64,000 nucleotides of DNA from Candidatus Egerieisoma sp. (GTDB lineage Bacteria > Bacteroidota > Bacteroidia > Bacteroidales > UBA932): assembly GCA_045650045.1 (NCBI GenBank), contig JAZRQU010000075.1:32043-96042 (forward strand), written 5' to 3'. Under the pieces are notes generated by a model. The model saw nothing but the letters and a program-made list of their open reading frames with translations. It searched no databases and was not told where the DNA came from. Both the position numbers and the translations under genes were made by a program. This document shows positions 10,871 through 40,037 of the stretch, piece by piece (position 1 is the stretch's first letter; each line of letters starts with the position of its first letter).

Positions 10871-10901
10871 TTTGGGGATTATGAAAATTTTTCTACCTTT
10901 G
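10871..10901 (+). promoter_or_regulatory. Bacteroidetes-type promoter for SRP RNA (-33 TTTG, 19-nt spacer, -7 TACCTTTG)
   Basis: TTTG at 10871-10874 and TACCTTTG at 10894-10901, about 5 nt before the predicted RNA 5' end. Confidence 0.6.
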
Positions 10902-10904
10902 TGC

Positions 10905-11005
10905 CCGGGTAAGTCATATACGACCAGCTCCTGCAAAATTCCCCCAGGACCGGAAGGTAGCAAGGGTATGCGGTTGTAGCGGTGCGATATATCAAGCTTA
11001 CCCTT
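10905..11005 (+). ncRNA. ffs: Signal recognition particle RNA (small bacterial 4.5S type)
   Basis: CCCCCAGGACCGGAAGGTAGCAAGGG matches conserved SRP domain IV (GGAA tetraloop closed by ACC/GGT, AGG / AGCA symmetric loop). 5' GGGTAAG pairs with 3' CTTACCC. T7 tract at 11004-11010; canonical promoter upstream. Confidence 0.8.
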
Positions 11006-11092
11006 TTTTTGTGCCCATACGTCAACTTTCTCCCCTCCTCTCCGCTCCGATGCAGCAAAACATCCTTATTTAAGCCGCATTTCCAGGAAAAA

Positions 11093-11352
11093 CTACTACC
11101 ATAGAGGGGAAATGTCCTGGAAACAGCCACTTTTCCAGGAGAAAATACTGCCACAGAGAGAAAACGTCCTGGAAACAACAGCAAAACCAGGAGAAACCAC
11201 AGCCGCAGAGAGAAAATGTCCTGGAAACAACACCAATTCCGGGAGAAACATCAGCCGCAGAGGGGAAATGTCCTGGAAACAACAGCAAAACCAGGAGAAA
11301 CTTCAGCCGCAAAGGGAAAATGTCCCGGAAACAGCCGCAAAAACGGGAGAAA
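11093..11352 (-). repeat. 52-bp tandem repeat array 1 (5 units, reverse orientation; unit starts 11093, 11145, 11197, 11249, 11301)
   Basis: Each unit ends in CC(A/G)GGAGAAA with exact 52-bp register. The array ends one base before the stop codon of the S41 protease gene. More degenerate copies lie upstream to ~11010. Confidence 0.95.
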
Positions 11353-11353
11353 A

Positions 11354-12937
11354 TTACTTTCCGGAAAGGACTTCTACCGCTTTCAATATATCCTTATCGT
11401 CCTGATTGATGAACTGGATGAAACTGTTGAAATCGTATATTGAGCGGATAATCAACGCTTTAAAATACATCCTTATCTGTCCGCCTGAAATTTGCATATC
11501 ACCCTCAGCAGGTGTAACACCTTTCTGGGCGCAATAAACAAGGAATGCAGCAATGTCTTCGTCTGAGACATTGTATTTTTTAACAAACTGGTCTACTTTA
11601 GGATATTTCTTAAGTAAGGATGCCCTGTGGGTATCTGAATACTGGTTCATGTAATCGGTCAGCAATCCTTTTCTAATGATTTCGCCATAGAAAGGAGTAT
11701 AGAATGTGGTATCCTGAGGGATAAAGATATCGGGCATGATACCGCCTCCGCCGTAAACAGCCCTGCCCTGCTTCAGAGTTCTGAAAACGGCAGATGAATC
11801 TGCAAGGTGGATGCTGTCCCTGTTGAAGTTTTCACCTCTGGCATATCTCTCTACTACCTGCATGTAGTATTCATCTTTCTTGCCTTCCTCGTACGGACTC
11901 TGGATTACCCTGCCGCTTGGGGTGTGGTATCGGGCTACTGTAAGGCGCAACGCCGATCCGTCGGGAAGAGGAACCTGCCTCTGTACCAGGCCTTTGCCAA
12001 ATGATCTGCGGCCAATGATAACTCCACGGTCCTGGTCCTGGATTGCTCCAGAGACAATTTCACTGGCTGAGGCCGAACTTTCATCAATCAGGATTGCTAC
12101 AGGGATACTCTGCAGAATACCTCTACCGTCTGCATACTCTTCCATCCTTGGCATTGCCCTCCCTTCGGTATATACAATGAGATCTCCTTTCTGAAGGAAC
12201 TCATTGGCAATCTGGATTGCGGTTACAAGATATCCTCCGGAGTTGCCCCTCAAGTCAAGGACAATACCTTTTGGCTCTACTGCCAAGCTCTGCAGTGCTT
12301 TTAGAAGCTCATCAAAAGATGTAGCGGCAAACCTGGTGAGTCTGATATATACAATTCCATCCTTAATCTCGTAATAGGAATCAATGCTGTTCAACGGAAT
12401 CTTGTCTCTGGTAATTACAAATTCAAGAACCTGTGGTTCACCTTTACGGACTACGCCAACTTTAACTTTTGTCCCTTTTGGTCCACGGAGATATTTGTGC
12501 ACCCTCTCTATTGTAAGGGAAGTGCCCGCAATGGTCTCATCATCAACTGAAACTATCTTGTCGCCGGCCCTCACACCAACTTTCTCGGCAGGACCGCCAG
12601 GAATAGTGGCGTTGATTGTAAGGGTATCGTTGATCAACGCAAATTCTACACCTATTCCGTCAAAATTTCCAACAAGAGGCTCATCCATGGCCTGGATATC
12701 CTCTTTTGTAATGTAGGAAGAGTGTGGATCAAGTTCTGTTACCATTGCTGCCAACGCCTTATTGGCAAGAGTTTCAATGTTGGCCGTATCCAGATACATT
12801 TTCTGAATATAGTAAAGTGTCTGGCCCAATTTGTTGGCCTGCATGGAAAGGTTGTTCTGTTTCTGGGCTACAGCCAAAACAGATATCATGCAGAAAGAAA
12901 CGGCAAGCAACAGGCTTGATGTAGATTTGCGTAGCAT
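11354..12937 (-). CDS. S41 family C-terminal processing peptidase
   Basis: Signal peptide ...AVA|Q, PDZ region, GNSGGY and SASASEI catalytic-region motifs. Confidence 0.85.
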   Translation of the reverse strand: MLRKSTSSLLLAVSFCMISVLAVAQKQNNLSMQANKLGQTLYYIQKMYLDTANIETLANKALAAMVTELDPHSSYITKEDIQAMDEPLVGNFDGIGVEFALINDTLTINATIPGGPAEKVGVRAGDKIVSVDDETIAGTSLTIERVHKYLRGPKGTKVKVGVVRKGEPQVLEFVITRDKIPLNSIDSYYEIKDGIVYIRLTRFAATSFDELLKALQSLAVEPKGIVLDLRGNSGGYLVTAIQIANEFLQKGDLIVYTEGRAMPRMEEYADGRGILQSIPVAILIDESSASASEIVSGAIQDQDRGVIIGRRSFGKGLVQRQVPLPDGSALRLTVARYHTPSGRVIQSPYEEGKKDEYYMQVVERYARGENFNRDSIHLADSSAVFRTLKQGRAVYGGGGIMPDIFIPQDTTFYTPFYGEIIRKGLLTDYMNQYSDTHRASLLKKYPKVDQFVKKYNVSDEDIAAFLVYCAQKGVTPAEGDMQISGGQIRMYFKALIIRSIYDFNSFIQFINQDDKDILKAVEVLSGK

Positions 12938-13907: not shown

Positions 13908-15761
13908 TTATTTTGAAGATTTCTCCATCTCGCTTTTTAGAGCTGCAAGAGCATCAATGTCACCAAGAGTAGTTTTCTCAATGTTAGCTTTGATTTTCTT
14001 CACAGCTTTCTGAGTTGACTCAGCCTCAGCAGCCTTCTCTTTGTTCTCTTTAGCCTCAACCTCTTTCTTCACATCCTCAGCGATTCTTGAGTGTGAAAGA
14101 ACGATTTTTTTGTTTGACTTGTTGAACTCAACTACTTTGAACTCCAGTTTCTCCTCAGCTTTAGCAGTAGTGCCATCCTCTTTTACAAGAGCTTTAGCAG
14201 GAGCAAAACCCTCAATACCGTGAGCAAGAGCTACAGCAGCACCTTTATCGTTGAATGAAACTACAGTACCCTCGTGAACTGAACCTACAGTGTAGATAGT
14301 CTCAAATACATCCCAAGGATTCTCCTCAAGCTGTTTGTGACCTAGGCTTAGTCTTCTGTTCTCTGCATCGATCTCTAGAACTACTACCTCAAGTTTCTCA
14401 CCGATAGCAGTGAACTCTGATGGATGTTTAACTTTCTTTGTCCAAGAAAGGTCGCTGATGTGTACAAGACCGTCAACACCCTCCTCTAGCTCAACGAATA
14501 CGCCAAAGTTAGTGAAGTTTCTAACAACTGCATTGTGTTTAGAAGCTACTGGGTATTTCTCGCTGATGTTAGCCCATGGATCAGCTTTAAGCTGTTTGAT
14601 GCCAAGAGACATTTTTCTCTCCTCTCTGTCTAGAGTAAGGATAGCAGCCTCAACCTCGTCACCAACTTTTAGGAAGTCCTGTGCGCTTCTTAGGTGAGAA
14701 GACCAAGACATCTCTGATACGTGGATAAGACCCTCAACACCTGGCTGGATCTCGATGAATGCACCGTAGTCAGCAAGAACAACTACTTTACCTTTAACTT
14801 TGTCACCTACCTGAAGGTTTGCATCTAGAGCATCCCAAGGGTGAGCGCTAAGCTGTTTTAGACCTAGAGCGATACGTTTCTTTGTATCATCGAAGTCTAG
14901 GATAACAACGTTGATCTTCTGGTCAAGAGCAACAATCTCCTCTGGATGGCTGATTCTGCCCCATGAAAGGTCAGTGATGTGGATTAGACCGTCTACGCCA
15001 CCAAGGTCGATGAATACACCGTATGAAGTGATGTTCTTAACTGTACCCTCAAGAACCTGGCCTTTCTCAAGTTTGCCGATGATATCAGCTTTCTGTGCCT
15101 CAAGCTCTGCCTCGATAAGTGCTTTGTGTGAAACAACAACGTTTCTGAACTCGTGATTGATTTTAACAATCTTGAACTCCATAGTCTTGTTAACGAATAC
15201 ATCGTAGTCACGGATAGGTTTAACATCAATCTGTGAACCTGGCAAGAATGCCTCAATTCCGAATACGTCTACGATCATACCGCCCTTAGTACGGCATTTA
15301 ATGTAACCCTTAACAATCTCGTCTTTGTCGAATGCCTCGTTAACTCTATCCCAAGATCTAAGTGAACGTGCTTTCTTGTGTGAAAGAACTAGCTGACCTT
15401 TTTTGTCCTCTGCGTTCTCTACATATACCTCTACTTTATCACCAACTGCTAGCTCTGGATTGTATCTGAACTCGCTAACAGGGATGATACCCTCGCTCTT
15501 GTAACCAATGTTAACAAGAACCTCTCTTTTTGTTACAGCTACTACAGTACCCTCAACAACCTCGTTCTCGATTACTGAAGAAAGGGTCTCTGCATATGCA
15601 GCCTCTACAACCTCTTTAGATACACCGTAGTCAGTGTCCTGCTCGAATGCATCCCAGTCAAATTTGTCAATAGCAACAGATGCGTTGCTTTTGCGTTTTT
15701 TAGTCTCAACTGCTACTGGAGCCTCTACCTCCTCAACAGTTACTTTAGTTTCGTTACTCAT
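13908..15761 (-). CDS. rpsA: 30S ribosomal protein S1
   Basis: 617 aa made of repeated S1/OB-fold modules (e.g. GQVLEGTVKNITSYGVFIDLGGVDGLIHITDLSW), with a lysine/glutamate-rich tail. Confidence 0.95.
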   Translation of the reverse strand: MSNETKVTVEEVEAPVAVETKKRKSNASVAIDKFDWDAFEQDTDYGVSKEVVEAAYAETLSSVIENEVVEGTVVAVTKREVLVNIGYKSEGIIPVSEFRYNPELAVGDKVEVYVENAEDKKGQLVLSHKKARSLRSWDRVNEAFDKDEIVKGYIKCRTKGGMIVDVFGIEAFLPGSQIDVKPIRDYDVFVNKTMEFKIVKINHEFRNVVVSHKALIEAELEAQKADIIGKLEKGQVLEGTVKNITSYGVFIDLGGVDGLIHITDLSWGRISHPEEIVALDQKINVVILDFDDTKKRIALGLKQLSAHPWDALDANLQVGDKVKGKVVVLADYGAFIEIQPGVEGLIHVSEMSWSSHLRSAQDFLKVGDEVEAAILTLDREERKMSLGIKQLKADPWANISEKYPVASKHNAVVRNFTNFGVFVELEEGVDGLVHISDLSWTKKVKHPSEFTAIGEKLEVVVLEIDAENRRLSLGHKQLEENPWDVFETIYTVGSVHEGTVVSFNDKGAAVALAHGIEGFAPAKALVKEDGTTAKAEEKLEFKVVEFNKSNKKIVLSHSRIAEDVKKEVEAKENKEKAAEAESTQKAVKKIKANIEKTTLGDIDALAALKSEMEKSSK

Positions 15762-15898: not shown

Positions 15899-16246
15899 TT
15901 TCTCCCGAAATTGTGGTTGTTTCCGGGACATTTCTACTCTGCAGCCGTAGTTTCTCCCGGTTTTGGGGCGTTTTCCGGGACATTTCACCTCTGCAGCTGT
16001 GATTTCTCCCGGATTTGCGGCATTTTCCAGGACATTTCACCTCTGCGGCCGTGGTTTCTCCCGGTTTTGGGGCGTTTTCCGGGACATTTCACCTCTGCAG
16101 CCGTAGTTTCTCCCGGTTTTGGGGCGTTTTCCGGGACATTTCACCTCTGCGGCCGTGGTTTCTCCCGGATTTGCGGCGATTTCCGGGACATTTCACCTCT
16201 GCAGCCGTAGTGTCTCCCGGTTTTGGGGCGTTTTCCGGGACATTTT
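15899..16246 (+). repeat. 52-bp tandem repeat array 2 (about 6.7 units, forward orientation; unit starts 15899, 15951, 16003, 16055, 16107, 16159, 16211)
   Basis: Consensus TTTCTCCCGGTTTTGGGGCGTTTTCCGGGACATTTCACCTCTGCAGCCGTAG read directly with exact 52-bp register. A degenerate unit lies at ~15847-15898. The array sits upstream of the rpsA start. Confidence 0.95.
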
Positions 16247-16359
16247 CTATGCCAGGCAGCATTTGCTCCCCCAAAAACACCATTAATCGGGAGAAAATAA
16301 AACCCCGTTGCAACATTTAGCCCAGAAAATTGTTAATCAACAAGAAAATACCTCATACC

Positions 16360-16587: not shown

Positions 16588-17166
16588 TTATTCTTCCTCA
16601 TCACTCCAATACTCCCTGCAGACATCTTCAATGTCAAAAAGGTTGTCTCCTCTGCAAATGATCCTGTAATATAGGTCAATGTCGCTGTCGGGAATACATA
16701 ACATCACATCTATGCAAAGATGGTCTTCATGCATGGCAATTGCCTTTATGGAACGGATATCATATCTGGAAAGTGACTGTAAATCATCCTTAAAAAAGGG
16801 AGCAAAAAAATCCCTGGTAAATCTCAACCTACTAAAGACATTGCCGTTACATGTTGCCAGCATATCTACTGCTGTTCCAGCAAAAGAGCTGTCATATCCT
16901 GCAGCAAACAGATCATTATAGAAGATGAGACTCACTGTGTACCGGCCGGTGCGGGTAACCACTTTAGGATAAGAGACATCCCTGTATAACTGCACGGAAT
17001 CTGCAGGCATTTTTGAGAACTGCCCACTTATGAGTTTTATACGGCTGAACACCGAATCCTTGAACTGGAGATGGTGCTGAAGTTCCAGATTATAGATCTG
17101 CTCTTGGGCAAAAGCACCGCTGCACATAAACAGAAGCAACACAATATAAATGACCCTTTGACGCAT
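16588..17166 (-). CDS. Hypothetical exported protein
   Basis: Internal Met at 17166 gives the signal peptide MRQRVIYIVLLLFMCSGAFA|Q. No recognised domain. Confidence 0.6.
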   Translation of the reverse strand: MRQRVIYIVLLLFMCSGAFAQEQIYNLELQHHLQFKDSVFSRIKLISGQFSKMPADSVQLYRDVSYPKVVTRTGRYTVSLIFYNDLFAAGYDSSFAGTAVDMLATCNGNVFSRLRFTRDFFAPFFKDDLQSLSRYDIRSIKAIAMHEDHLCIDVMLCIPDSDIDLYYRIICRGDNLFDIEDVCREYWSDEEE

Positions 17167-17264
17167 ACTCAAAAATATATTGTTACACAAAGATAGCACA
17201 ATTCCGGTTCCACAACTTTGCGCCAAAAGAAAATTACCCTTATTTTTGTAAATTAAACCATAAA

Positions 17265-26131: not shown

Positions 26132-28366
26132 TTAAAAATTATAACTCACCTTAAGCATGTAATTTACAGGTGCTTGCGCATAAAGCCCTTTCTCAACATA
26201 GGCATCGGAGCCGTCTGCAAAATGGGCCTGATAAATCCATCCGTAAGACCAGTATTTGTTGTTGAGCAGATTATCAATACTCAACGCCACATTCAACGCC
26301 CTTTCATTCTCTCCTATCCTGAAATTTCTGGAAACATTCAGTGCCGACACAAAATAAGAAGGGACCTCAGAGACCTTTGAATTCAAATTGTCCATATATT
26401 GCTTCCCGACAAATTTTCCATTTAGGCTGCATTCAAACCCACAACCCGGACGGGCTCTCAACTGAAGCATTCCAATCACTTCAGGGGAAAGGATAAGATT
26501 TGTCTTCTTGAAGAAAATCTCCTTCTGCGGAAGTGGATTCCAGTTCTGGGGATTATCATAAGTATCCACGCATGCGGTGTAGTCAAGTGCCTTGTTCTGT
26601 GATAGGGTAATGTTTCCCTCAAGGGTGAAAATGCGGCTGAGGTTCCAGGCTGCAGCCAACTCCACTCCCCTACGGTAACTGTGTGGAATATTCTCCTTAA
26701 TTACATAACCTACATCGGTAAGGCGGCCTGTAGCTACCAACTGGTCTTTGTATTCCATCAAATACATATTTGCAGAAAAGGCAAACTTCTCAGTATTAAG
26801 GCGGTAACCGAGTTCTATATCTACCAGTTGTTCGGCTTTAAGTTTATCTGCAGAGGCAGATTTGATGCTCTCCTTAATATCACTTCTGCTTGGCTCCCTG
26901 TGGGCAATTGCCACTGAAGCATAGATTCTGCTGTTGTCCCCGGGAGCATAGGTAAAACCAGCCTTTGGATTGAAGAAATTGTAGTTTTTCTTCCAGTTGA
27001 GGACTGCAAAATCCTTGTCGGGACCATCCAATTTATAAGAAACTCCCCTATACTGGAAATCTGCAAAAATTGTCAATTTGTGGGTAGGATTCCACTCGGC
27101 ACGTGCATAAGTGCTGAAATCTTTCTTAAGACCATTGTTTTTATACCAGCGGAAAGGCTCCTCTACTGTTGTGTGCTTGCACCAAAGGACATCTCCAAAA
27201 TGGTTTCCGTCATAGTAGCCGTAAGAGACTGCTGCTGAAGCCTTAAGAGTATTTGATGAATAATTGATATCCGTATTAAGCGCATAATAATCGTTTAACA
27301 TCGCCTGTTGGATAATGAAATCGCTCTTTGTTACAGAGGCATCGGGTGCCTGCATACCATATTTTGAAAACTTGGTATCTGCCTTGTAATTCTCATAGTA
27401 ACCGTCACCTCTGGTATAGTTCAAAGAGGTACTCCACTCAAGAGATTCATTGAACCTATGAGCATACCTGGCCTGCAGATGGTGCTGGGTATAATTGTCG
27501 GTCTCATTATCGTAGTAATGTACATTCCCCTGCTCATCATAATACTCTCCTGCAATATTGTAAGTGCGGTCAATATCATACATCTGCGGAGAGATTCCTT
27601 CCCATGTAATTCCTGTACACTGGTCTCCGTAAATGTAAGTGAGGCTCAAATCTCCCTTGTCTGTACGCAATCCGGCTATGGTATATAGAGAGTTGAGATC
27701 CGCCTTGGCATTCCTTATATAACCGTCTGATGTGCCGTGCGAATACACCACATTAAAATACAATCCCTGTTTGCCAATTCCCGTTGCCGCCGCCACCGAA
27801 CTGAGGTAAGTATTGTACGACCCCAAACTGAACGTTGCTGATGCTGAGGGAGTTGTACAAAGAGACGACGTAACTATAGAAACTATAGACAAATTGGCAC
27901 CAAAAGCGCCGGATCCTGCGGCAGAAGTTCCAACTCCGCGCTCCAACTGTACTGAGCTGGTGAACTGGTGAATGGAAGGCATGTTTACCCAGAAAACCTT
28001 CTGGCTCTCCGAGTCATTCATAGAAATGCCGTTCAAAGTAACATTGGTTCTGGTATCATCTGTTCCGCGGACAGAAAAATTGCTGTAGCCAAGACCAAGA
28101 CCTCCCTCGGTAGTAGCCACAACAGAAGGCTGAAGTGCCAGCATCATAGGAAGCGAATGGGAAGCGTTCTCCTTACGCATCTTGTAACCGCTCACCTCGG
28201 TATAAGTTACAGGGGTGTTTGTCCCTGCCCTATGGGCCTGAACAACAATAGAATCAAGACGATGATTGTCTGATAAAGTGTCGGAAGGCTGTTGCAATTG
28301 CTTCTGAACTGCAAAGCCCCACATTGGGAAAAATAAAATCCCGCAAAAAAGCATTAATTTTATCAT
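26132..28366 (-). CDS. TonB-dependent outer-membrane receptor (thiamine-regulated)
   Basis: Signal peptide, plug region, long beta-barrel ending in the aromatic terminus YMLKVSYNF. TPP riboswitch in the 5' leader. Confidence 0.9.
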   Translation of the reverse strand: MIKLMLFCGILFFPMWGFAVQKQLQQPSDTLSDNHRLDSIVVQAHRAGTNTPVTYTEVSGYKMRKENASHSLPMMLALQPSVVATTEGGLGLGYSNFSVRGTDDTRTNVTLNGISMNDSESQKVFWVNMPSIHQFTSSVQLERGVGTSAAGSGAFGANLSIVSIVTSSLCTTPSASATFSLGSYNTYLSSVAAATGIGKQGLYFNVVYSHGTSDGYIRNAKADLNSLYTIAGLRTDKGDLSLTYIYGDQCTGITWEGISPQMYDIDRTYNIAGEYYDEQGNVHYYDNETDNYTQHHLQARYAHRFNESLEWSTSLNYTRGDGYYENYKADTKFSKYGMQAPDASVTKSDFIIQQAMLNDYYALNTDINYSSNTLKASAAVSYGYYDGNHFGDVLWCKHTTVEEPFRWYKNNGLKKDFSTYARAEWNPTHKLTIFADFQYRGVSYKLDGPDKDFAVLNWKKNYNFFNPKAGFTYAPGDNSRIYASVAIAHREPSRSDIKESIKSASADKLKAEQLVDIELGYRLNTEKFAFSANMYLMEYKDQLVATGRLTDVGYVIKENIPHSYRRGVELAAAWNLSRIFTLEGNITLSQNKALDYTACVDTYDNPQNWNPLPQKEIFFKKTNLILSPEVIGMLQLRARPGCGFECSLNGKFVGKQYMDNLNSKVSEVPSYFVSALNVSRNFRIGENERALNVALSIDNLLNNKYWSYGWIYQAHFADGSDAYVEKGLYAQAPVNYMLKVSYNF

Positions 28367-28439
28367 AAAATTACTGTTTTTTATGCAGGAGGGTGTCTTA
28401 ATAAGACTCTATAAACCAACTGTAGAAGATGTGGAATTT

Positions 28440-28518
28440 TCCACGCTTTCCCTACGGCGGTACTAACCGCATCAGGTTTAAAGGGTATAATCTCAGCCGA
28501 ATGGCACCCCCAAGCAAA
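28440..28518 (-). promoter_or_regulatory. TPP (THI-box) riboswitch
   Basis: The minus-strand read is GCTTGGGGGTGCCATTCGGCTGAGATTATACCCTTTAAACCTGATGCGGTTAGTACCGCCGTAGGGAAAGC. It carries the THI-box core (GGGGTGC, CTGAGA, ACCC, AACCTGAT, GGTTAGTACC, GGGA) with P1 GCTT/AAGC, ~78 nt upstream of the receptor ATG. Confidence 0.85.
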
Positions 28519-28532
28519 ATGTTAATAAATGC

Positions 28533-31611: not shown

Positions 31612-31919
31612 TCCCTCATCCCGACAAAACATCCAGGAACAGCCTGCGAAACGTGGAGGAAATGTTCTCCGAGCGCAAAATATCCATGAATGGACATCAG
31701 AACGAGGAGGAAATGAGTACCATGAGCAAAACATCCATGAATACCCTGCGAGACGTGGAGGAAATCCCTCCGCAGAAGAAGAATGTCCCGTAAAACGCCA
31801 CAATTCCGGGAGAAACTGCCTCCGCAGAAGAAGAATGTCCCGGGAAACGGCACAATTCCGGGAGAAATGGCCACGGAGATGGAGAAACATCCTGGTTTTG
31901 GGGGTAATTTCGGGAGAAA
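31612..31919 (-). repeat. Repeat array 3 (reverse orientation): three 52-bp units at 31764, 31816, 31868 preceded by three diverged 51-bp units (~31612, 31663, 31714)
   Basis: 52-bp units end in CCGGGAGAAA / TCGGGAGAAA; 51-bp units end in GGAGGAAA. The array fills a divergent intergenic region. Confidence 0.9.
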
Positions 31920-32012
31920 AATGCACCCCACTGAAAATACTTGTAACAAAGTGCAATTTGTGTTATTATTTTTTGTATTTTTGCATGATTTTAACCAAAA
32001 TACGCTTAAATT

Positions 32013-32852
32013 ATGTTACTTATTGCCGACTGCGGTTCTACAAAAGTTGATTGGCGCGCCATTGCAGCTGATGGCACTGTCAAATCAGTAAATACTGAGG
32101 GTATCAACCCTGTGTTCCTTTCTTCGGAGGACATTTCAAAAATCCTTGAGGAGAAAGTTGTTCCAGCTATTGGAACTGACGTTAAAGAGATTTATTTCTA
32201 CGGTGCAGGTATCCTTGCTCCAGAGCTTGCAAAGGTTCTAAGTGATGCTTTTGACAAAGTGTTCCCTGGCAACAAATCATTTGTGGCTTCAGACCTTCTT
32301 GCAGCAGCGAGAGCACTTTGCGGTCACAGCGCAGGTATCGCATGCATCATGGGTACAGGTGCAAACACCTGTTTCTACGATGGCGAGGAGATTGTGAACA
32401 ATGTAAGAGCCGGCGGATTCATCCTTGGTGATGAGGCTTCTGGCGGAGTACTTGGAAAGAAACTTATGGCCGATTTCATCAAAGGCCTTCTTCCAAAGGA
32501 GATTGAGGAGGAGTTTGTAAAGAGATATGACCTTGACTACATGAAGATTGTACAGAAGGTTTACCGCGAGCCGCTTCCAAGCAAATGGTTGGCTTCATTC
32601 TCTCCGTTCATCTCTGAGTTCAGGGACAACCCTCACATCAACAACCTTATCAGAACCAGCTTTGACGAGTTCTTCAAACGCAACATCGTACACTACGATT
32701 ACAAGAACTACCCTGTAAACCTTGTTGGTTCAATTGCACACTACTACGAGGATATCCTTAAGGATGTGGCTGCACAGAACGGTGCAACCATCGGAAAGAT
32801 CATCAAGTCACCTATCGACGGTCTTGTTGAGTACCACACCAACGCTATCTAA
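32013..32852 (+). CDS. BadF/BadG/BcrA/BcrD-type ATPase, N-acetylglucosamine/N-acetylmuramic acid kinase-like
   Basis: ASKHA phosphate-binding motifs LIADCGSTKVDW and MGTGANTC. Directly upstream of murQ. Confidence 0.75.
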   Translation: MLLIADCGSTKVDWRAIAADGTVKSVNTEGINPVFLSSEDISKILEEKVVPAIGTDVKEIYFYGAGILAPELAKVLSDAFDKVFPGNKSFVASDLLAAARALCGHSAGIACIMGTGANTCFYDGEEIVNNVRAGGFILGDEASGGVLGKKLMADFIKGLLPKEIEEEFVKRYDLDYMKIVQKVYREPLPSKWLASFSPFISEFRDNPHINNLIRTSFDEFFKRNIVHYDYKNYPVNLVGSIAHYYEDILKDVAAQNGATIGKIIKSPIDGLVEYHTNAI

Positions 32853-32865
32853 TTGAGATTATTCT

Positions 32866-32909
32866 TCCCGACAGGGATTTCCGGTGAGGCCGTGGATTAT
32901 CTGTCGGGA
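32866..32909. repeat. Inverted repeat TCCCGACAG-N26-CTGTCGGGA just after the kinase stop codon (CTGTCGGG motif family)
   Basis: Arms at 32866-32874 and 32901-32909, read directly. Confidence 0.6.
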
Positions 32910-32943
32910 TTAAAATAGAAAAATACAAATAAAACATACAATC

Positions 32944-33759
32944 ATGACAAAAGTTACAGAGCAATCTTCAAATTACGCTAATTTGGATCAGATGACAACT
33001 GCAGAGTTGTTGCAGAACATGAACAAAGAGGACAAGACAGTTCCTGTTGCAGTTGAGAAATGTATTCCAGAAATTGAGAAACTTGTAGACGGTATCGTTG
33101 AGAGAATGAAGAAAGGTGGTAGACTTTTCTACCTTGGTGCAGGTACCAGCGGAAGACTTGGTATCCTTGACGCTTCTGAGATCCCTCCTACATACGGTGC
33201 TCCATTTGATCTTATCATCGGTCTTATTGCAGGTGGTGACACAGCTATCCGTAAAGCAGTTGAGAACGCTGAGGATGACTGGGATGGCGGTTGGAGAGAC
33301 ATGCAGCCTTACAACGTTAACGAGAACGACGTAGTTGTAGGTATTGCTGCCAGCGGTAGTACTCCTTACGTTATCGGTGCTGTTAAAGAGGCTAGAAAAC
33401 GTGGTATCCTTACAGGTTGTATCACTTGTAACCCAGGTGCTGCAGTTGCTGCTGAGGTAGACGTTCCAATCGTGGCTGTTGTAGGTCCTGAGTTTGTAAC
33501 AGGTTCTACACGTATGAAATCAGGTACTGCACAGAAACTTATCCTTAACATGATCTCAACTTCAACCATGATTAAGATGGGTCACGTTAAAGGCAACAAG
33601 ATGGTTGACATGCAGCTTTCAAACGCTAAACTTGTAGACCGCGGTACCAGAATGATTATGGGTGAGACTGACATTACAGATTACGAGTACGCAAAATCAT
33701 TGCTTCTTGAGCACGGTTCTGTAAGAAATGCAGTTGATTTCTATAACTCACAGAAATAA
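32944..33759 (+). CDS. murQ: N-acetylmuramic acid 6-phosphate etherase MurQ
   Basis: SIS domain with GAGTSGRLG and GSTRMKSGTAQK motifs; 271 aa. Confidence 0.9.
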   Translation: MTKVTEQSSNYANLDQMTTAELLQNMNKEDKTVPVAVEKCIPEIEKLVDGIVERMKKGGRLFYLGAGTSGRLGILDASEIPPTYGAPFDLIIGLIAGGDTAIRKAVENAEDDWDGGWRDMQPYNVNENDVVVGIAASGSTPYVIGAVKEARKRGILTGCITCNPGAAVAAEVDVPIVAVVGPEFVTGSTRMKSGTAQKLILNMISTSTMIKMGHVKGNKMVDMQLSNAKLVDRGTRMIMGETDITDYEYAKSLLLEHGSVRNAVDFYNSQK

Positions 33760-33780
33760 TTAAAACCAAAAAGACTCATT

Positions 33781-33810
33781 AAGGAGATTCTATAACGGAT
33801 TCTCCTTTTT
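33781..33810 (+). terminator. Intrinsic terminator after murQ (AAGGAGA / TCTCCTT stem plus T-tract)
   Basis: Stem arms at 33781-33787 and 33801-33807, followed by TTTTTGAGTTTT. Confidence 0.6.
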
Positions 33811-33833
33811 GAGTTTTATTCGTAAAAAATACA

Positions 33834-34448
33834 ATGTTCAAACAGAAATATTCCTCACAGTTATTGGAGAAGGCAGTTGATGAGTTTGCGTCGCTTCCCG
33901 GCATTGGAAGAAAAAGCGCATTGAGACTTGCCCTGCATCTTCTCAAGCAGCCTGTAGAGAATATTGAACGGTTCGGCAATTCATTCATTGCCTTGCGCAG
34001 AGGGGTTAAATATTGCAACACCTGCAACATGATTGCAGATTCCAACCTTTGCTCCGTTTGTGCAGACACCCGAAGGGACAAATCTGTGATTTGCGTGGTG
34101 GAGAGCATCAGGGATGTATTGAGCATTGAAAATACAGAGCAGTTCAACGGCCTCTACCATGTCCTGGGTGGAATCATTTCCCCAATGGACGGCATCGGAC
34201 CGGCAGACCTACCTATCGGGAAGCTGATAGAGAGGGTGCAGGAAGGGGATGTGAAGGAGGTAATCCTTGCTCTGAGTACAAGTATGGAGGGTGAGACTAC
34301 ATCCTTCTTCCTGTACAAGAAACTGAGTGCATTGAATATTAAAATCAGTACTATAGCACGTGGTGTGGGTTTTGGCGACGACCTTGAGTATACAGATGAG
34401 CTTACCCTTGGAAAATCTATCCAGAACAGACACCTGTTTAAACTTTAA
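33834..34448 (+). CDS. recR: Recombination protein RecR
   Basis: HhH LPGIGRKSALRLA, C4 zinc finger CNTCNMIADSNLCSVC, Toprim-like C-terminal half. Confidence 0.9.
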   Translation: MFKQKYSSQLLEKAVDEFASLPGIGRKSALRLALHLLKQPVENIERFGNSFIALRRGVKYCNTCNMIADSNLCSVCADTRRDKSVICVVESIRDVLSIENTEQFNGLYHVLGGIISPMDGIGPADLPIGKLIERVQEGDVKEVILALSTSMEGETTSFFLYKKLSALNIKISTIARGVGFGDDLEYTDELTLGKSIQNRHLFKL

Positions 34449-34458
34449 CTAACTTTTT

Positions 34459-35904
34459 ATGAATTCAACTATTCTGTTAATCACTTTTGTACTGTATACC
34501 TTGCTTCTTTTTGGTATTGCTTGGTTGACCAGCCGCAACGCCGACAGCAAGACTTACTTTACAGGTAACAAAAGCTCAAACTGGTTCCTTGTTGCTTTTG
34601 GTATGATCGGTTCATCAATGAGTGGTGTATCTTTCATGTCATTGCCGGGTAACGTTATCAACGAGAACTTCTACTATATGCCAATGGTATTTGGTATGTT
34701 CTTCGGTTACGCTATCATTGCAGGACTTCTGTTGCCATTGTACTTCAAATTGAACCTTACTTCAATTTACACTTACCTTGAGCAGCGTTTTGGAACTTTC
34801 AGCTACAAGACCGGTGCATCTTTCTTCCTCATTTCTAGACTTTTGGGTGCTACCGTAAGGACATTCCTTGTAATCTTTGTGCTTTACAACTTTGTGCTTC
34901 AGCCACTTGGCGTTCCATTCATTGTAGCAGCAATTGTATTTGTAGGTTTGGCTATCCTTTACACAATGAAGGGTGGTGTCAAGACCATCATCTACACAGA
35001 TACAATTCAGACAACATTTATGATCCTTGCAATTGTTGCTTCTTGCGTTGCAATCTGCGGACAGTTGGACTGGAACCTTGGCGATATGCTGAAGAATGTT
35101 CACGAGAGCCACTTCTCAAACATGTTCAACCATGATTCAGCAGCAGCAACCAACTGGATAAAGAGATTCCTTAGTGGTGTCCTTATCCCGATAGCAATGA
35201 CCGGTCTCGACCAGGCAATGATGCAGAAGAGCTTGAGCTGCAAGAACATCAAAGAGGCTCAGAAGAACGTTATGACCTCAATCCTTATGATGATCCCTAT
35301 CAACTTGCTATTTGTAACTCTTGGTGCTGTTCTTGCAATCTTTATGCAGGGTCATCCGGAGCTTATTGAGCAGGTTACAACTGCAGCCGGCAAACTTGAG
35401 GCAGACAAGATCTTCCCTACAGTTGCCCTTACACTTGGCCCAGTTGTAGGTGTTATCTTCTTTGTAGGTCTTATTTCAGCTGCATATCCTACTTGTGCAA
35501 ATGCCCTTACCTCACTTACAACTTCAACTTGTATCGACTTGGTAGGCATTGAGAAACACGGTTGGGATGATGACAAGAAGAAGAAAGTAAGAATGAACGT
35601 TACCTACATTATGGCTGCTTTGTTCGTATTGATGATTTGTGTATTCAACATCCTTAAGAACGACGCCGTAATCAACATGGTTTACCAGATTGCATCATAC
35701 ACTTATGGTCCGCTTCTTGGTCTGTTCATGTTGGGTATCCTTACCAAGGTTAAGATTCAGGATAAAGTTGTACCTTACGTTTGCGTGCTTGCACCAGTTA
35801 TCTGTTTCTTCATTGAGAACTACGTATTCAGCTTCGGTTTCTCATTGATCGCAGTTTGTGCAGGAATCACAATGGGTGGTCTTCTTCTATTCAGAAAGAA
35901 ATAA
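34459..35904 (+). CDS. Sodium:solute symporter family transporter
   Basis: 481 aa with ~13 hydrophobic segments; SSF-like organisation. Confidence 0.8.
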   Translation: MNSTILLITFVLYTLLLFGIAWLTSRNADSKTYFTGNKSSNWFLVAFGMIGSSMSGVSFMSLPGNVINENFYYMPMVFGMFFGYAIIAGLLLPLYFKLNLTSIYTYLEQRFGTFSYKTGASFFLISRLLGATVRTFLVIFVLYNFVLQPLGVPFIVAAIVFVGLAILYTMKGGVKTIIYTDTIQTTFMILAIVASCVAICGQLDWNLGDMLKNVHESHFSNMFNHDSAAATNWIKRFLSGVLIPIAMTGLDQAMMQKSLSCKNIKEAQKNVMTSILMMIPINLLFVTLGAVLAIFMQGHPELIEQVTTAAGKLEADKIFPTVALTLGPVVGVIFFVGLISAAYPTCANALTSLTTSTCIDLVGIEKHGWDDDKKKKVRMNVTYIMAALFVLMICVFNILKNDAVINMVYQIASYTYGPLLGLFMLGILTKVKIQDKVVPYVCVLAPVICFFIENYVFSFGFSLIAVCAGITMGGLLLFRKK

Positions 35905-35907
35905 TTT

Positions 35908-36501
35908 ATGACACAAATTGAGCTTCTGGTTCTTGCCATCAGTCTTACATTTGATACTTTTGCCGTATCAGTTGGTGGCGGAATCTCAATGCCAAATATG
36001 AAACTCTCAAGGAAGGCTATGGTTATAGCCTTCTTTGGTGTTTTTCAGGCAGCATATCTGTTTGCCGGCTGGTTTCTTGGATACCAGGCAGCCTCATTCA
36101 TTGTTGAATGGGACCACTGGGTAGCATTCGTAATCCTCACTTATCTTGGCGGCAATATGTTCCTTGGAGCTTTGAAAGGAGATGATTCCTCTGAATCCGG
36201 TGACGGCGGTGCCAGCAAACGCGATTTCCTTTGCATCAAGCGTCTTGCGGTACTGGCCACAGCCACCAGCATAGATGCAATTGCAGTTGGTGCTTCATTA
36301 GCAATGCTGGATATAGATCTGCAGAATATTGGTTTCACTACATTCTACACTTTTGTTGCTACAGCGGTTGCAGCCTATATTGGTTTGCAAGGCGGCAGCA
36401 AACTCGGCCACAAAGCCGGCAAGAAAGCCGAAATCTGGGGCGGTGTGATTCTGATTATCATAGGCATGAAGATACTCATAGAACACGTCATAACATTCTG
36501 A
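35908..36501 (+). CDS. mntP: Manganese efflux pump MntP
   Basis: Two DUF204 repeats (FDTFAVS and SIDAIAVG); 197 aa. Confidence 0.85.
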   Translation: MTQIELLVLAISLTFDTFAVSVGGGISMPNMKLSRKAMVIAFFGVFQAAYLFAGWFLGYQAASFIVEWDHWVAFVILTYLGGNMFLGALKGDDSSESGDGGASKRDFLCIKRLAVLATATSIDAIAVGASLAMLDIDLQNIGFTTFYTFVATAVAAYIGLQGGSKLGHKAGKKAEIWGGVILIIIGMKILIEHVITF

Positions 36502-36507
36502 TATCAG

Positions 36508-36536
36508 GCCCTCGGAGTTGCTCCGGGGGCTTTTTT
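36508..36536 (+). terminator. Intrinsic terminator after mntP (GCCCTCGGAG / CTCCGGGGGC stem plus T6)
   Basis: Arms at 36508-36517 and 36521-36530; T6 at 36531-36536. Confidence 0.75.
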
Positions 36537-36553
36537 GTTGCTGGAGGAGTGGT

Positions 36554-36850
36554 TTTCTCCCGGTTTTGTGGTGATTTCCGGGACATTTTCTCTCGGCGGC
36601 TGCAGTTTCTCCCGGTTTTGTGGCGCTTTCCAGGACATTTCCATTCCTTGGCAACAGTTTCTCCCGGAAATCCCCCCAGAATCAGGATGTTTCCCCTCCT
36701 ATACACAATTTCCTCCCGGTTTTGTGGCGCTTTCCGGGACATTTTCATTCCTCCGCAACAGTTTCTCCCGAAAATCCCCACAGAATCAGGATATTTCCCC
36801 TCCTGTACACAATTTTCTCCCGGTTTTGTGGCGCTTTCCAGGACAAATCT
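36554..36850 (+). repeat. 52-bp tandem repeat array 4 (forward; unit starts 36554, 36606, 36658, 36710, 36762, 36814) with two alternating unit subtypes
   Basis: Exact 52-bp register read directly. A-type units carry CCCGGTTTTGTGGCGCTTTCCGGG; B-type units (36658, 36762) read CCCGGAAATCCCCCCAGAATCAGGATGTTTCCCCTCC. Confidence 0.95.
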
Positions 36851-36897: not shown

Positions 36898-37325
36898 ATT
36901 GTGGGCGGATCTATAAGCCGAGTTCTGTACTTCAGACTGGTACCAGGAGGCACCCTAAGAAGTTCCTATCATTTATCTGTCGCAGCCTACCCCCCAGCAA
37001 CGGACGAGCAACCCTTAACTGCTGGTATACATGGCCTTGCAGGATGCAGTAGGATACCGCTATAATGTCGCCATCATAACCCGTGGGCTCTTACCCCACA
37101 TTTTCACCCTTACCGCAGTAATGCAGTCAAGCAACCCGAAGGTCTTCTGCTGCGCGCAAAGACTATGAAGTCTTGTAACAGGTACGTGACCTGACGCTTC
37201 TGCGGCGGTAATTTTCTGTTACCCTTGCATAAACTCATCGCCTATCTGTGCTTTCCACAGTGCAGTGCTCTACCCTGCCCGGACTTTCCTCCCAATTTCT
37301 TGAGCGATAGGACGACCCGCCGGTG
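36898..37325 (-). ncRNA. rnpB: RNase P RNA, bacterial type A
   Basis: The minus-strand read contains GGGAGGAAAGTCCGGGC and ACAGAACTCGGCTTATAG (the two P4 strands). It also has GCGGTAAGGGTGAAA..GTGGGGTAAGAGCCCAC modules and a P1 pairing GGCGGGTC/GATCCGCC. A -7 box TATCTTTG (plus strand 37326-37333) lies immediately upstream. Confidence 0.9.
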
Positions 37326-37387: not shown

Positions 37388-38314
37388 CTATTTCTTTTTC
37401 CGTGTTGTGGTAATGGGGAACAATTCATCCAAAATACGTTCATCTATTTTTAGTATCCTCATAATCTGAGCATTGCTGGCATTGTAATCATACTTCATTA
37501 GCTTAGCTACATCCAATTTGTCATTTTTACCCAGCAATGAAGGATTTTTCATATCATACTTTTTTGCACAATGGCTGAAGATTGCGGCATATATCTCTTC
37601 ATCCGTGTAAAATATTGAATCACCCAACTCTCTGGCGATCTGCGAATAAGACTCTATCTGTCGGGAAATTGAACTGAAATAGTGTCTGGCGTCTCTAAAA
37701 AGGTTTTCTGCCAATTTAATATGACAGAAAGATGCTGGCGAGAAGTATCCCTGCGCTGGCAGAAATTTCAAATTTCCATTCAACCGGTATTCCCTGCATC
37801 TGAAAATTGATCTGATCTTTGAAATACTGAGTTCAGATATATCAATAGAAGTTTCCAGTTCACGGATTGGATTGAAAAAGTAACTATTGGCACCCCATGG
37901 ATAAGAAAACGGGGTGCTGTTTTTATCAACTAGATATCCGTTTCTATTTACATAACAAATAACAGCTTGCAAATGTCTTAAATCAGTAATTCTAAAGTGC
38001 TTGAACGATAATCCTTTCATATCTGAAACCCTTTCCTGCAACGACAAATATCTATGAAGTTTTTTAGTGAGAAAATTGACAAACCTATCCATCACCTCCT
38101 CCTCACACGCAACAACAAAATGAAAATGATTGCTCATTACTTCAAAGGTGAGCATTTTCATTTCATCAATTAAATTTACAGCAGACAAAGCAACCATATT
38201 CATCCCATAAACCAATTCATCTTTTGTCCTGAAAATGGCACTTTGATGTACTCCCGACGAACACAAATGCCATACAGGTCCCAACTCATAAAATTCATAC
38301 TCCTGCGGTGTCAT
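37388..38314 (-). CDS. IS200/IS605-TnpA-like HUH Y1 transposase homologue, REP-associated tyrosine transposase (RAYT)-like, with ~100-aa C-terminal extension
   Basis: HUH motif in SNHFHFVVACEE; ICYVNRNGYLVDKNSTPFSYPWGANSYFF resembles the Y..N(P)...YPWSS block of RAYTs. No tnpB partner. Flanked by inverted 52-bp arrays. Confidence 0.7.
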   Translation of the reverse strand: MTPQEYEFYELGPVWHLCSSGVHQSAIFRTKDELVYGMNMVALSAVNLIDEMKMLTFEVMSNHFHFVVACEEEVMDRFVNFLTKKLHRYLSLQERVSDMKGLSFKHFRITDLRHLQAVICYVNRNGYLVDKNSTPFSYPWGANSYFFNPIRELETSIDISELSISKIRSIFRCREYRLNGNLKFLPAQGYFSPASFCHIKLAENLFRDARHYFSSISRQIESYSQIARELGDSIFYTDEEIYAAIFSHCAKKYDMKNPSLLGKNDKLDVAKLMKYDYNASNAQIMRILKIDERILDELFPITTTRKKK

Positions 38315-38457: not shown

Positions 38458-38613
38458 CTGGATACATTGTGGTGAAATATCCTGAAAAATACCATAATTC
38501 CGGGAGAAAATGGTTCGGCGGTGGGGAAACATCCTGGTTTTGGGGGTAAATCCGGGAGAAAACGCTGCCACACAAAAAATGTCCTGGACAGCAATGCAAA
38601 TCCAGGACAAATA
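38458..38613 (-). repeat. 52-bp tandem repeat array 5 (3 units, reverse orientation; unit starts 38458, 38510, 38562)
   Basis: Units end in CCGGGAGAAA (38509, 38561) and CCAGGACAAATA (38613), with exact 52-bp register. Confidence 0.9.
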
Positions 38614-38654: not shown

Positions 38655-40037
38655 CTATTTGCAAACCATTATATCAAGAATCATCTTGTCGGTGGTTTGC
38701 ATACCTTCGGCACCGATGCGGCCGAGGTTGCAGATGGTCTTCTCAATGCAGTCTTCAATGATACCGTCATTGGAAGAGATGCAGATGTTGTCCATTGCAA
38801 GGACGGCAGCCTGGATTGAAGAAGAAACACCGGAAGCAACTTTAAGGGCGCAGCCTACTTTTGCGCCGTCACAAACCATACCGGTGATGTTTCCTACCAT
38901 GTTCTTGATAGCAGAGCAAACTTGCTCATAACCACCTCCGTGAAGGTAAACAATACCACAAGACGAGCCGGTAGAAGCAATAACACAGCCGCACAAAGCG
39001 GAGAGCTTGCCAAGATAGCCTTTAATGTGGATGGCAATCAGGTGGCTCAACACAAGAGCGCGGGCCAGTTTCTCCTGGGAAACCCCCATCTTCTCGGCAA
39101 CTGCTATAACAGGCATTGTAACTGTAATTCCCTGGTTACCGCTGCCAGAGTTACTCATTGCAGGAAGGGTACAACCGGCCATTCTGGCATCTGAAGCAGC
39201 CGCTGTAGCAGCCATTGCGTAAGTCATTATAGATGAGCCAAAAACAGAAGCATGTTCAGAAGCAAGAATAGTCTTGCCAACCTTCAAACCGTAATCATTA
39301 CTCAAACCAGCCTCGGCTAACGCTTTGTTAAGTTTAACAGAATCCAGGATGAACTCAATATTCTCAAAAGAAGCCTCCTGTGCAAACTGAAGAATCTCCT
39401 TCACCGACAATTTATAATCCAATGTGGTCTTCTCCACAGGAGCAACCTCCCCTCCTACTGCAGTGCATGCAGAACCGGCACAATTGAGTGGGTTGATATG
39501 TGAATGGTCAAGCAAAGAAACACCGTCACGAACTACAGAAATGATTGAATCGTGATTGTTGGCAATCTCTGTCATTGCATAATGGGCAGGTTCAATAAGA
39601 CAATTCTGAGCACCAGCAGCACCAGCAGGCAATCCAGAATAAGCAGTAGCCTTAATATAAAGTTTCAATTGAGTATCAGCCAATACCACTTTAATGGCAC
39701 CAGCGTCAACCATTGCTTTTGCAGCATCAATTGCCTCTGGAGTAAGATCCTTCAAAACCTCCAGACCATAAGAGCTACGGCCACAAGTAACCGCCAATGC
39801 AGCAGCAATATGCAAGCCAACCATTCCGGTGCCGGGAATACCCACTCCCATACCGTTTTTAAGGATGTTTGCTGAAACCTCCACAACCACATTGCCAACC
39901 TCTGAACCAATTTCCTTCAAAGCTTCACAAGAACGGGCAACGGCCAAGGAAACGGCAATTGGCTCGGTACAGCCCAAAGCAGGTTTAACCTCTTTCTTAA
40001 TCAGTTCAATTATTTCAAGTTCTCTCTGTAAATCCAT
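38655..40037 (-). CDS. L-cysteine desulfidase family protein (UPF0597 / serine dehydratase alpha-like)
   Basis: N-terminal signature KPALGCTEPIAVSLAVA and glycine-rich C-terminal half; 460 aa. Confidence 0.75.
   Translation of the reverse strand: MDLQRELEIIELIKKEVKPALGCTEPIAVSLAVARSCEALKEIGSEVGNVVVEVSANILKNGMGVGIPGTGMVGLHIAAALAVTCGRSSYGLEVLKDLTPEAIDAAKAMVDAGAIKVVLADTQLKLYIKATAYSGLPAGAAGAQNCLIEPAHYAMTEIANNHDSIISVVRDGVSLLDHSHINPLNCAGSACTAVGGEVAPVEKTTLDYKLSVKEILQFAQEASFENIEFILDSVKLNKALAEAGLSNDYGLKVGKTILASEHASVFGSSIMTYAMAATAAASDARMAGCTLPAMSNSGSGNQGITVTMPVIAVAEKMGVSQEKLARALVLSHLIAIHIKGYLGKLSALCGCVIASTGSSCGIVYLHGGGYEQVCSAIKNMVGNITGMVCDGAKVGCALKVASGVSSSIQAAVLAMDNICISSNDGIIEDCIEKTICNLGRIGAEGMQTTDKMILDIMVCK

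Follow-up and report, generated by a model that had tools for sequence, protein, structure and literature searches.

Among bacterial mobile DNA that is 'resident', long-lived and vertically inherited, the REP/RAYT system is the best-known example, and to our knowledge it has been studied almost only in Proteobacteria. Other repeats of comparable size, such as MIRU and the pneumococcal BOX elements, are dispersed units of ~45-100 bp that form intergenic tandem arrays and vary in copy number between strains; BOX elements have boxA and boxC end modules, and we know of no dedicated Y1 transposase gene that is associated with MIRU or BOX. Single copy, vertical inheritance and absence from mobile replicons have been used as the criteria that separate RAYTs from insertion sequences (PMC5581495), and there are reports of REPs repeated in tandem and of REP stems of only 5 bp (PMC3733652). 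For Bacteroidetes, TnpA-REP subclass 2.6 (average length: 179 aa; motifs: NH[LIV]H and YIH[QN]NP) was described through genes flanked by 'atypical secondary structures' with copies elsewhere in the genome (Quentin et al. 2018, PMC6006769); the word 'tandem' occurs 0 times in the main text of PMC6006769. BrickBuilt of Porphyromonas gingivalis is a minisatellite-bearing MITE with a 23-nt unit, framed by a conserved leader and a conserved tail module whose ends are inverted repeats (PMC4596501).

The DNA analysed here is a 64-kb stretch (64,000 nucleotides; the window), in which tandem repeats were called by Tandem Repeats Finder and by an nhmmer profile built from six units of array 2. Tandem Repeats Finder reported four period-52 arrays (11083-11352, 15920-16245, 31767-31867 and 36554-36845) and one period-51 array (31625-31765). 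The nhmmer profile recovered all of these on the strands given by the sequence-only reading, added array 5, and found nothing else in the window at E < 0.3. Period-52 arrays thus occupy five intergenic places (Table 1). The sequence-only reading had described five 52-bp-phased intergenic arrays with about 27 units (~1.4 kb, ~2% of the window), and it was borne out: the two programs between them called all five arrays, every unit start it listed was reproduced when the arrays were laid out in 52-nt rows, and the units counted were 25 canonical and 3 diverged (~1.38 kb, 2.1% of the window). Register is exact, with no indels between canonical units. All 48 of the 16-mers that occur at least three times in the window lie inside the arrays, which places these far beyond chance. 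Every occurrence in the window is a head-to-tail array of at least three units, and no singleton repeat was detected by the unit profile (E < 0.3).

Table 1. Arrays and neighbouring features in the window (positions count from the first letter of the window).
Feature	Position	Strand	Description
Small SRP RNA gene (Bacteroidales)	10900-11007	+	
Array 1	11041-11352	-	6 units of 52 bp: 5 well formed, last degenerate
S41 peptidase gene	11354-12937	-	
rpsA	13908-15761	-	
Array 2	15899-16246	+	7 units, last truncated after second arm
Diverged unit after array 2	~16262-16297		inverted orientation
Array 3	31612-31919	-	3 canonical units (31764-31919, first is type B) and 3 diverged 51-bp units (31612-31763)
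Intrinsic terminator of MntP	36506-36532		
Array 4	36554-36849	+	6 units, type A and type B alternating
Intrinsic terminator of RNase P RNA	36895-36867		
Class A RNase P RNA	36898-37323		
RAYT-like Y1 HUH transposase homologue	37388-38314	-	308 aa; between arrays 4 and 5
Array 5	38458-38613	-	3 units
Serine dehydratase gene	38655-40037	-	

The units contain the inverted repeat TCCCGG-N14-CCGGGA that had been proposed from the letters alone; the CTGCAG palindrome, which had been attributed to canonical units in general, is confined to array 2. Only two parts of the unit are conserved between arrays, positions 1-10 (TTTCTCCCGG) and approximately positions 25-35 (CCRGGA and a T-run); each array has its own version of the 14-nt spacer and of the 16 nt at the 3' end. 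The conserved 5' flank of the inverted repeat is TTTC or TTTG. A conserved GTAG or CGTC tag at the foot of the palindrome was not found, GTAG occurring only in some units of array 2. The diverged 51-bp units of array 3 have the arms TCCAYG/CATGGA. Four units, starting at 36658, 36762, 31868 and 38510, carry the inter-arm spacer in reverse complement (type B); in spacer letters the comparison is AATTACCCCCAAAA versus AAAACGCCCCAAAA, and AAAACGCCCCAAAA is the reverse complement of the usual TTTTGGGGCGTTTT. Array 4 has a super-period of 104 bp, with 92% matches as against 64% at period 52. T-runs in the window's repeat family start at unit positions 1, 11, 21 and 33, that is, in helical phase; judged by eye, such phased T-runs are not evident in the consensus units of the other repeat families described below, and DNA curvature was dropped as a general property of the repeats.

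The stem predicted for the window's family is 6 bp long with a loop of 14 nt. Pairing between the arms is 90.7% in the window's units and 89.0% in shuffled controls. The central pair is mismatched in 9 of the 25 units, and across 60 units it was C-G in 29, C/A in 13, T/G in 7 and T-A in 6 (about a third mismatched), with essentially no signal of covariation of the stem within a family. Folding z-scores for single-stranded DNA ranged from -1.6 to -2.2 in the window's family and from -1.1 to -4.2 overall. These values lend slight support to the alternative hairpins that had been suggested for the arrays; taken together, the short stem, the long loop, the small excess of pairing, the mismatched central pairs and the modest z-scores count against a classical hairpin substrate.

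The Bacteroidales-type small SRP RNA and the class A RNase P RNA show the window to be Bacteroidales DNA. Relative to ORFs with Pfam support, the arrays are all intergenic. Array 1 immediately follows the S41 peptidase stop codon, and its other end is some 35 nt from the 3' end of the SRP RNA if the degenerate unit is included and some 75 nt if it is not. Array 2 lies 138 bp upstream of rpsA, just distal to conserved promoter-proximal sequence, and array 3 lies between divergent genes. Array 4 is placed between the intrinsic terminators of MntP and of RNase P RNA. Array 5 lies downstream of the serine dehydratase gene, between it and the 308-aa ORF, 144 bp upstream of the latter and co-oriented with it. 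The 3'-side flank of this RAYT-like gene is array 4, which is inverted relative to array 5 and lies on the far side of the RNase P RNA gene. Three proteins encoded next to arrays 4 and 5 were looked up by exact sequence and gave no match.

Several identities were considered for the arrays and rejected. CRISPR was dismissed, as it had been from the sequence alone, since the units abut without unique spacers and their variable parts are homogeneous within an array. The repeats are likewise non-coding, in agreement with the same reading: 52 is not a multiple of 3, so that ORFs through the arrays rotate through the frames, and array ORFs in related contigs have no Pfam match. A known RNA family was rejected because Rfam gave no match, whether gathering scores were applied or the cut-off was relaxed to E ≤ 1. 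Terminator-like or sigma-70 promoter sites are not enriched in the arrays, by a scan whose promoters are of the sigma-70 rather than the Bacteroidetes type. A modular MITE of the BrickBuilt or BOX type was rejected for want of a shared leader or tail: the 150-nt flanks of the five arrays have in common only chance 9-10-mers (E ≥ 0.15). Like BrickBuilt, the arrays are a dispersed, intergenic, variable-copy tandem repeat without spacers in Bacteroidales; the unit, however, is 52 nt rather than 23 nt long, and the earlier comparison with the minisatellite-bearing MITE of Porphyromonas therefore fails. The end modules of BOX are absent from the window's arrays as well.

The ORF between arrays 4 and 5 had no match in Pfam at the default cut-off. 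Its relatives were collected from a large protein collection (449 at E ≤ 1e-20), and five of these homologues bear the JGI name 'REP element-mobilizing transposase RayT'. When thresholds were relaxed, Y1_Tnp (Pfam) or REP_Tyr_transpos (NCBIfam) was matched in every member tested (E-value: 0.003-0.1), at scores of 12-18 bits that lie below the curated cut-offs of 23 and 80 bits. The protein divides into an HUH fold of ~140 aa at the N-terminus (H62-F-H64, Y120-V-N-R-N) and a conserved helical domain of ~170 aa at the C-terminus. In an alignment of 42 sequences reaching down to 37% identity, H62, H64, Y120, N122, R123 and N124 are invariant, with the two histidines in the context S-N-H-F-H-F. 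The family profile aligns this HUH motif to that of ISDra2 TnpA, as a weak match among PDB sequences (E-value: 0.08). The AlphaFold2 model of the protein (pLDDT: 88; pTM: 0.81) was searched with Foldseek, for which the best PDB match was 4ER8, a complex of E. coli TnpA-REP with a REP hairpin (probability: 1.0; TM-score: 0.58 on the target; 139 columns), followed by the TnpA proteins of ISDra2, IS608 and IS200. A fold search with the C-terminal domain alone gave no significant match, the top ones being DnaA and small HTH domains (E ≥ 0.8). By these sequence and structure comparisons the 308-aa protein is assigned to a distant clade of the Y1 HUH family, and the invariant HUH and tyrosine residues point to retained catalysis on DNA. 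An exhaustive profile search returned 409 clusters (50% identity) at E ≤ 1e-30 and 1100 at E ≤ 1e-10, nearly all of ~300 aa, which makes this a large protein family that Pfam does not name.

The association of gene and repeat was examined in ten contexts, the window and nine further contexts of homologues. Tandem repeats with a period of 50-52 bp were found beside the gene in 10 of 10 contexts, on both sides in eight of them, with 2 to about 20 copies per array. The homologue at 89% protein identity to the window (L019) has the 52-bp family and the arrangement of the window. At 63% identity (L017, L018) a different 51-bp family with arms GCGGGA/TCCCGC stands on both sides. At 56% (L020) a 50-51-bp family forms one array just downstream of the gene and one, mutually inverted, 1.9 kb upstream past a neighbouring gene, and at 50% (L022) a third 51-bp family is present in 8 and about 20 copies. 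Two homologues at 44% (L023, L025) have 51-bp arrays on both sides with arms TTGTCACG/CGTGACAA, and another at 44% (L030) has about 16 copies upstream, two units downstream and a further array 2.5 kb away. At 41% (L027-L029) 5-11 copies of a 51-bp unit with arms TTCATCCACA/TGTGGATGAA are confined to the downstream flank; upstream of these genes stands an 81-bp array that is unrelated. The most distant homologue, at 38% (L031), has two 52-bp units on each side with arms TCCAAGGAA/TTCCTTGGA.

In all, nine repeat families have unrelated sequences and a common period, each tied to its own protein lineage. Seven of the nine share one layout, with a T-rich 5' flank, an arm of 6-10 bp, a 10-15-nt spacer and the complementary arm; in the remaining two (L020, L030) the inverted repeat is less clear. 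Across lineages the arms read TCCCGG/CCGGGA, GCGGGA/TCCCGC, GCYCGGAA/TTCCGCGC and the three further pairs given above. By our estimate (51 x 7 / 4^6), ~9% of random 51-mers would contain a perfect inverted repeat of 6 bp or more with a spacer in this range, so that its recurrence with different arms amounts to a compensatory pattern at the level of families. In the window, the commonest 12-mers are present in both flanks of the RAYT-like gene. The second family (GCGGGA/TCCCGC) flanks its own gene in L017 and L018 and also occurs at the rpsA-upstream site of other contigs (L011-L013), and is therefore both gene-flanking and dispersed. The window's repeat, too, occurs in related genomes, as expected of the dispersed family proposed at the outset; pattern scans gave only 5 stretches from species-representative genomes and 1 from JGI metagenomes. 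Two of the MAGs with the repeat carry Firmicutes labels (Butyrivibrio; Ca. Egerieisoma). Many homologues of the protein are found on contigs of 1-2.5 kb that break at the repeats.

The RAYT-like gene has one copy in the window. Lineages with 50-89% protein identity retain the gene order serine dehydratase, array, RAYT-like gene and RNase P RNA, and no match to the protein was found among 72,556 plasmids and 50,697 phage records. Read against the criteria of PMC5581495, these observations identify it, as far as sequence comparison reaches, as a domesticated gene rather than an insertion sequence.

Orthologous contigs for array sites were sought through the window's proteins, and the highly conserved S1 protein was the only one to yield any, with ten contigs encoding an S1 identical to that of the window. 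At the rpsA-upstream site, where the window has 7 units, the related contigs have 5 (L006), 3 (L007) or 2 (L016) units, or a decayed relic only (L008, L009, L015). The array of L006 equals that of L007 with two internal units added. In L010 and L013, arrays of the second family stand beside an old relic of the first. Several of the S1-identical contigs end inside the array. Copies spaced at super-periods of 104, 153/156 and 306 bp resemble one another more closely than single units do, from which we conclude that arrays grow by block duplication. Compared with L018 and L022, the window has undergone, or lacks, an inversion of a 4.6-kb segment (31933-36547), at the two ends of which lie the mutually inverted arrays 3 and 4.

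With a RAYT-like ORF standing between arrays and with relatives that are always accompanied by 50-52-bp arrays of their own, the repeats are placed in the REP/RAYT class. We consider it probable that the RAYT-like Y1 (HUH) protein has the 52-bp units as its cognate repeats and that the locus is a REP/RAYT-type system. No Rfam family matches the repeat, but to regard it as an undescribed kind of element is an overstatement, the RAYT-like ORF having been overlooked. The likeness to REP/RAYT systems consists in a single-copy (here, one copy in the window), vertically inherited Y1 HUH homologue whose nearest solved structure is 4ER8, in a gene whose flanks carry a short extragenic repeat that is also enriched in the intergenic DNA nearby, and in a repeat sequence that co-varies with the protein lineage. 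The differences are as follows. The protein family is ~310 aa long with a conserved extra C-terminal domain, has the tyrosine motif Y-V-N-R-N-G in place of Y-I-x-x-N-P, and falls below the thresholds of Pfam Y1_Tnp and NCBIfam REP_Tyr_transpos. At the loci examined the repeats form only head-to-tail arrays with a strict 50-52-bp period, whereas those of REP/RAYT systems are singletons or inverted doublets (REPINs, BIMEs); their inverted repeat has short arms (6-10 bp) and a 10-15-nt spacer, and the GTAG/CGTC tag is absent. The usual REP is an imperfect palindrome of 20-40 bp that folds into a stable stem-loop, to which the inverted repeat seen in seven of the nine families may be a counterpart. 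The separation of array 4 from the gene by the RNase P RNA gene is a further point against the REP/RAYT reading. Subclass 2.6 shares with the window a Bacteroidetes Y1 protein whose gene has flanking repeats dispersed in the genome, but the protein of the window (308 aa; NHFH and YVNRNG) differs in length and motifs from the published description of that subclass. No published description of the ~310-aa clade or of its 51-52-bp arrays was found in the part of the literature that was covered. The system is thus probably REP/RAYT-like, with a strictly phased tandem organisation and a distinct protein clade.

We infer that the repeats are mobilised by the RAYT-like protein. In such a system the enzyme would recognise the inverted repeat of each unit, either as a single-stranded DNA hairpin or as a duplex palindrome through the extra C-terminal domain, and would nick and rejoin DNA at a fixed position relative to the repeat. 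These reactions could seed units at new intergenic sites and might also add or remove whole units in register. Arrays would then expand and contract by block duplication and deletion, to which recombination and slippage would contribute, and could themselves serve as substrates for homologous recombination. More tentatively, the unnamed large clade of ~310-aa Y1 HUH enzymes (409 clusters at 50% identity, E ≤ 1e-30) may build and maintain phased 51-52-bp head-to-tail arrays, either by in-register excision and reinsertion of unit-length single-stranded circles or by binding of a dimer to duplex DNA every five helical turns. This would constitute a mechanistically distinct 'tandem-REP' system in which the period itself is selected; we regard it as a possibility with the balance somewhat against it.

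A model in which the arrays are binding sites on duplex DNA stays in play, given the weak hairpin features, a conserved period equal to about five turns of the helix and the extra C-terminal domain. The palindromic unit would be bound by a dimer of the RAYT-like protein, through its C-terminal helical domain, or by a host protein; the ~51-52-bp period would set successive sites on one face of the helix, and the arrays would be structural or regulatory loci and not mainly mobile DNA, with nucleoid organisation, topological barriers and promoter-upstream elements as candidate roles. Such binding is compatible with the REP/RAYT explanation and may be its rival or its complement. It accounts for a 50-52-bp period kept in all nine families despite unrelated sequences, which simple descent with free indels does not predict, and it fits half-sites of the CCNGG type in which the central base is free and non-covarying, a 10-15-nt spacer that is long for the hairpin loop of a Y1 transposase, and the tolerance of spacer-inverted (type B) units. 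The helical phasing of T-runs in the window's family and the conserved ~170-aa C-terminal helical domain, whose best fold matches are to DnaA and small HTH domains, agree with it as well; yet those fold matches are not significant, the phasing is not evident by eye in the other families, and the invariant HUH and tyrosine residues point to retained catalysis. On this evidence we hold duplex binding as the principal nature of the arrays to be rather unlikely. A lower probability still attaches to ordinary minisatellites (VNTRs, MIRU-like) shaped by slippage and unequal recombination only, with the transposase-like gene as a bystander. Five loci in the window and variable copy number at the rpsA site do agree with the definition of a dispersed minisatellite, and the polymorphism at that orthologous site, the block duplication shown by the higher-order periods and the failure to find a target-site duplication or a conserved leader or tail all speak for such an origin. 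What makes it improbable is that equal-period arrays accompany the protein family in every context examined, that the repeat differs in sequence from one protein lineage to the next but retains the arm-spacer-arm layout, and that one family sits at five unrelated intergenic sites in 27 kb, for which slippage alone is insufficient.

Two further explanations are judged very improbable. The arrays could act as RNA, terminating transcription, stabilising mRNA or yielding small RNAs, effects that are known for E. coli REPs (PMC3733652). No terminator separates array 1 from the S41 peptidase stop codon that it adjoins, so that this array is probably transcribed as a 3' UTR. Array 4, on the other hand, is enclosed by a convergent pair of intrinsic terminators and probably escapes transcription, and the arrays as a whole occur on the upstream side of genes, on the downstream side and between them, in either orientation, are not enriched in terminator-like sites, show weak covariation and have no Rfam match even at E ≤ 1; RNA-level roles are therefore unlikely as their general function. 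The gene and its flanking arrays could instead be an autonomous IS200/IS605-type insertion sequence, of which the other arrays would be decayed ends. Direct-orientation repeats on both sides of the gene in several lineages, resembling the left- and right-end hairpins of IS200/IS605, and the many homologues on 1-2.5-kb contigs broken at repeats would suit such an element. Its hallmark is a multi-copy transposase gene at variable locations, with left and right ends of its own; here the gene is single-copy in the window, its synteny is conserved at 50-89% protein identity, plasmid or phage copies were not found in the records searched, and arrays far outnumber genes.

Beyond the window, the locus is a pointer to a sizeable protein family of uncultured gut Bacteroidales that goes unnamed in current domain libraries. 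The arrays have practical consequences, in that they break short-read assemblies, with many contigs ending at them, and are miscalled as genes of 130-300 aa; they also mark sites of copy-number variation and inversion that could serve for strain typing. The period of ~51-52 bp is fixed while the repeat sequence turns over completely, which offers a testable handle on how Y1 proteins recognise and propagate their repeats and on selection for length or helical phasing.

A 4.6-kb block of the window (31933-36547), running from a 279-aa ORF through MntP, is flipped in orientation relative to L018 and L022, two contigs that carry homologues of the RAYT-like transposase gene. Both ends of this block coincide exactly with 52-bp repeat arrays 3 and 4, which are themselves mutually inverted, and this coincidence suggests that recombination between the arrays produced the inversion. 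Next to array 2 and to an ORF for a small membrane protein lies a further difference: a segment of ~630 bp (16589-17216) is present in the window and missing from its close relative L007; it contains a 212-aa ORF without a Pfam match. Elsewhere in the window, a TPP riboswitch (28432-28521, - strand, 73.6 bits) was found upstream of a 744-aa ORF (26132-28366, - strand).

Within the arrays, the spacer of the units designated type B matches the usual spacer at 10 of 14 positions as reverse complement, versus 3 of 14 when compared directly, a pattern that suggests either that small segments between the arms were inverted or that the site is recognised symmetrically. In the 52-bp consensus, T-runs are located at positions 1, 11, 21 and 33 (window 16055-16106 is one example), and since their spacing is ~10-11 bp and the 52-bp period is near five helical turns, the arrays could be intrinsically curved. 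By eye, no such phasing could be made out in the other repeat families.

Coordinates of repeat units, arrays and predicted ORFs
Feature	Location	Strand	Remark
212-aa ORF	window 16588-17226	-	no Pfam match; within the ~630 bp missing from L007
Type B units	window 36658-36709, 36762-36813, 31868-31919, 38510-38561		14-nt inter-arm spacer reverse-complemented relative to other units
81-bp-period array	L027 3204-3555
81-bp-period array	L028 2715-3066
Array-spanning predicted ORF	L007 14425-14916
Array-spanning predicted ORF	L017 3813-4208
Array-spanning predicted ORFs	L018 1927-2358, 4256-4606
Array-spanning predicted ORFs	L022 4354-4899, 6448-7341

The arrays also affect annotation and appear to cause assembly breakage. 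Gene callers predict "proteins" of 116-297 aa running through the arrays in L007, L017, L018 and L022; these ORFs had no Pfam match and are almost certainly spurious. Short-read contigs often end inside or at arrays (L011, L012, L014 and L016), and many RAYT-like homologues are found on contigs hardly longer than the gene itself (P0001-P0005, 1.4-2.5 kb).

Beyond the window, an array following MntP in L018 (9256-9442) includes a unit (TTTGTCCCGG...CTGGGAC) that belongs to the window's family, and the RAYT-like gene of L018 is itself flanked by the second family; the two families thus coexist in one genome. Distant RAYT-like homologues in L027 and L028 have an unrelated 81-bp-period array upstream (4.3 copies, 91% matches) and a 51-bp array downstream. 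The 52-bp family was also found on L001 (JAZRKG010000104.1) and L004 (JAZRCK010000001.1), from MAGs labelled Butyrivibrio and Candidatus Egerieisoma, names placed in Clostridia by NCBI taxonomy. These labels could reflect mis-binning, or the 52-bp family could truly be present outside Bacteroidales.
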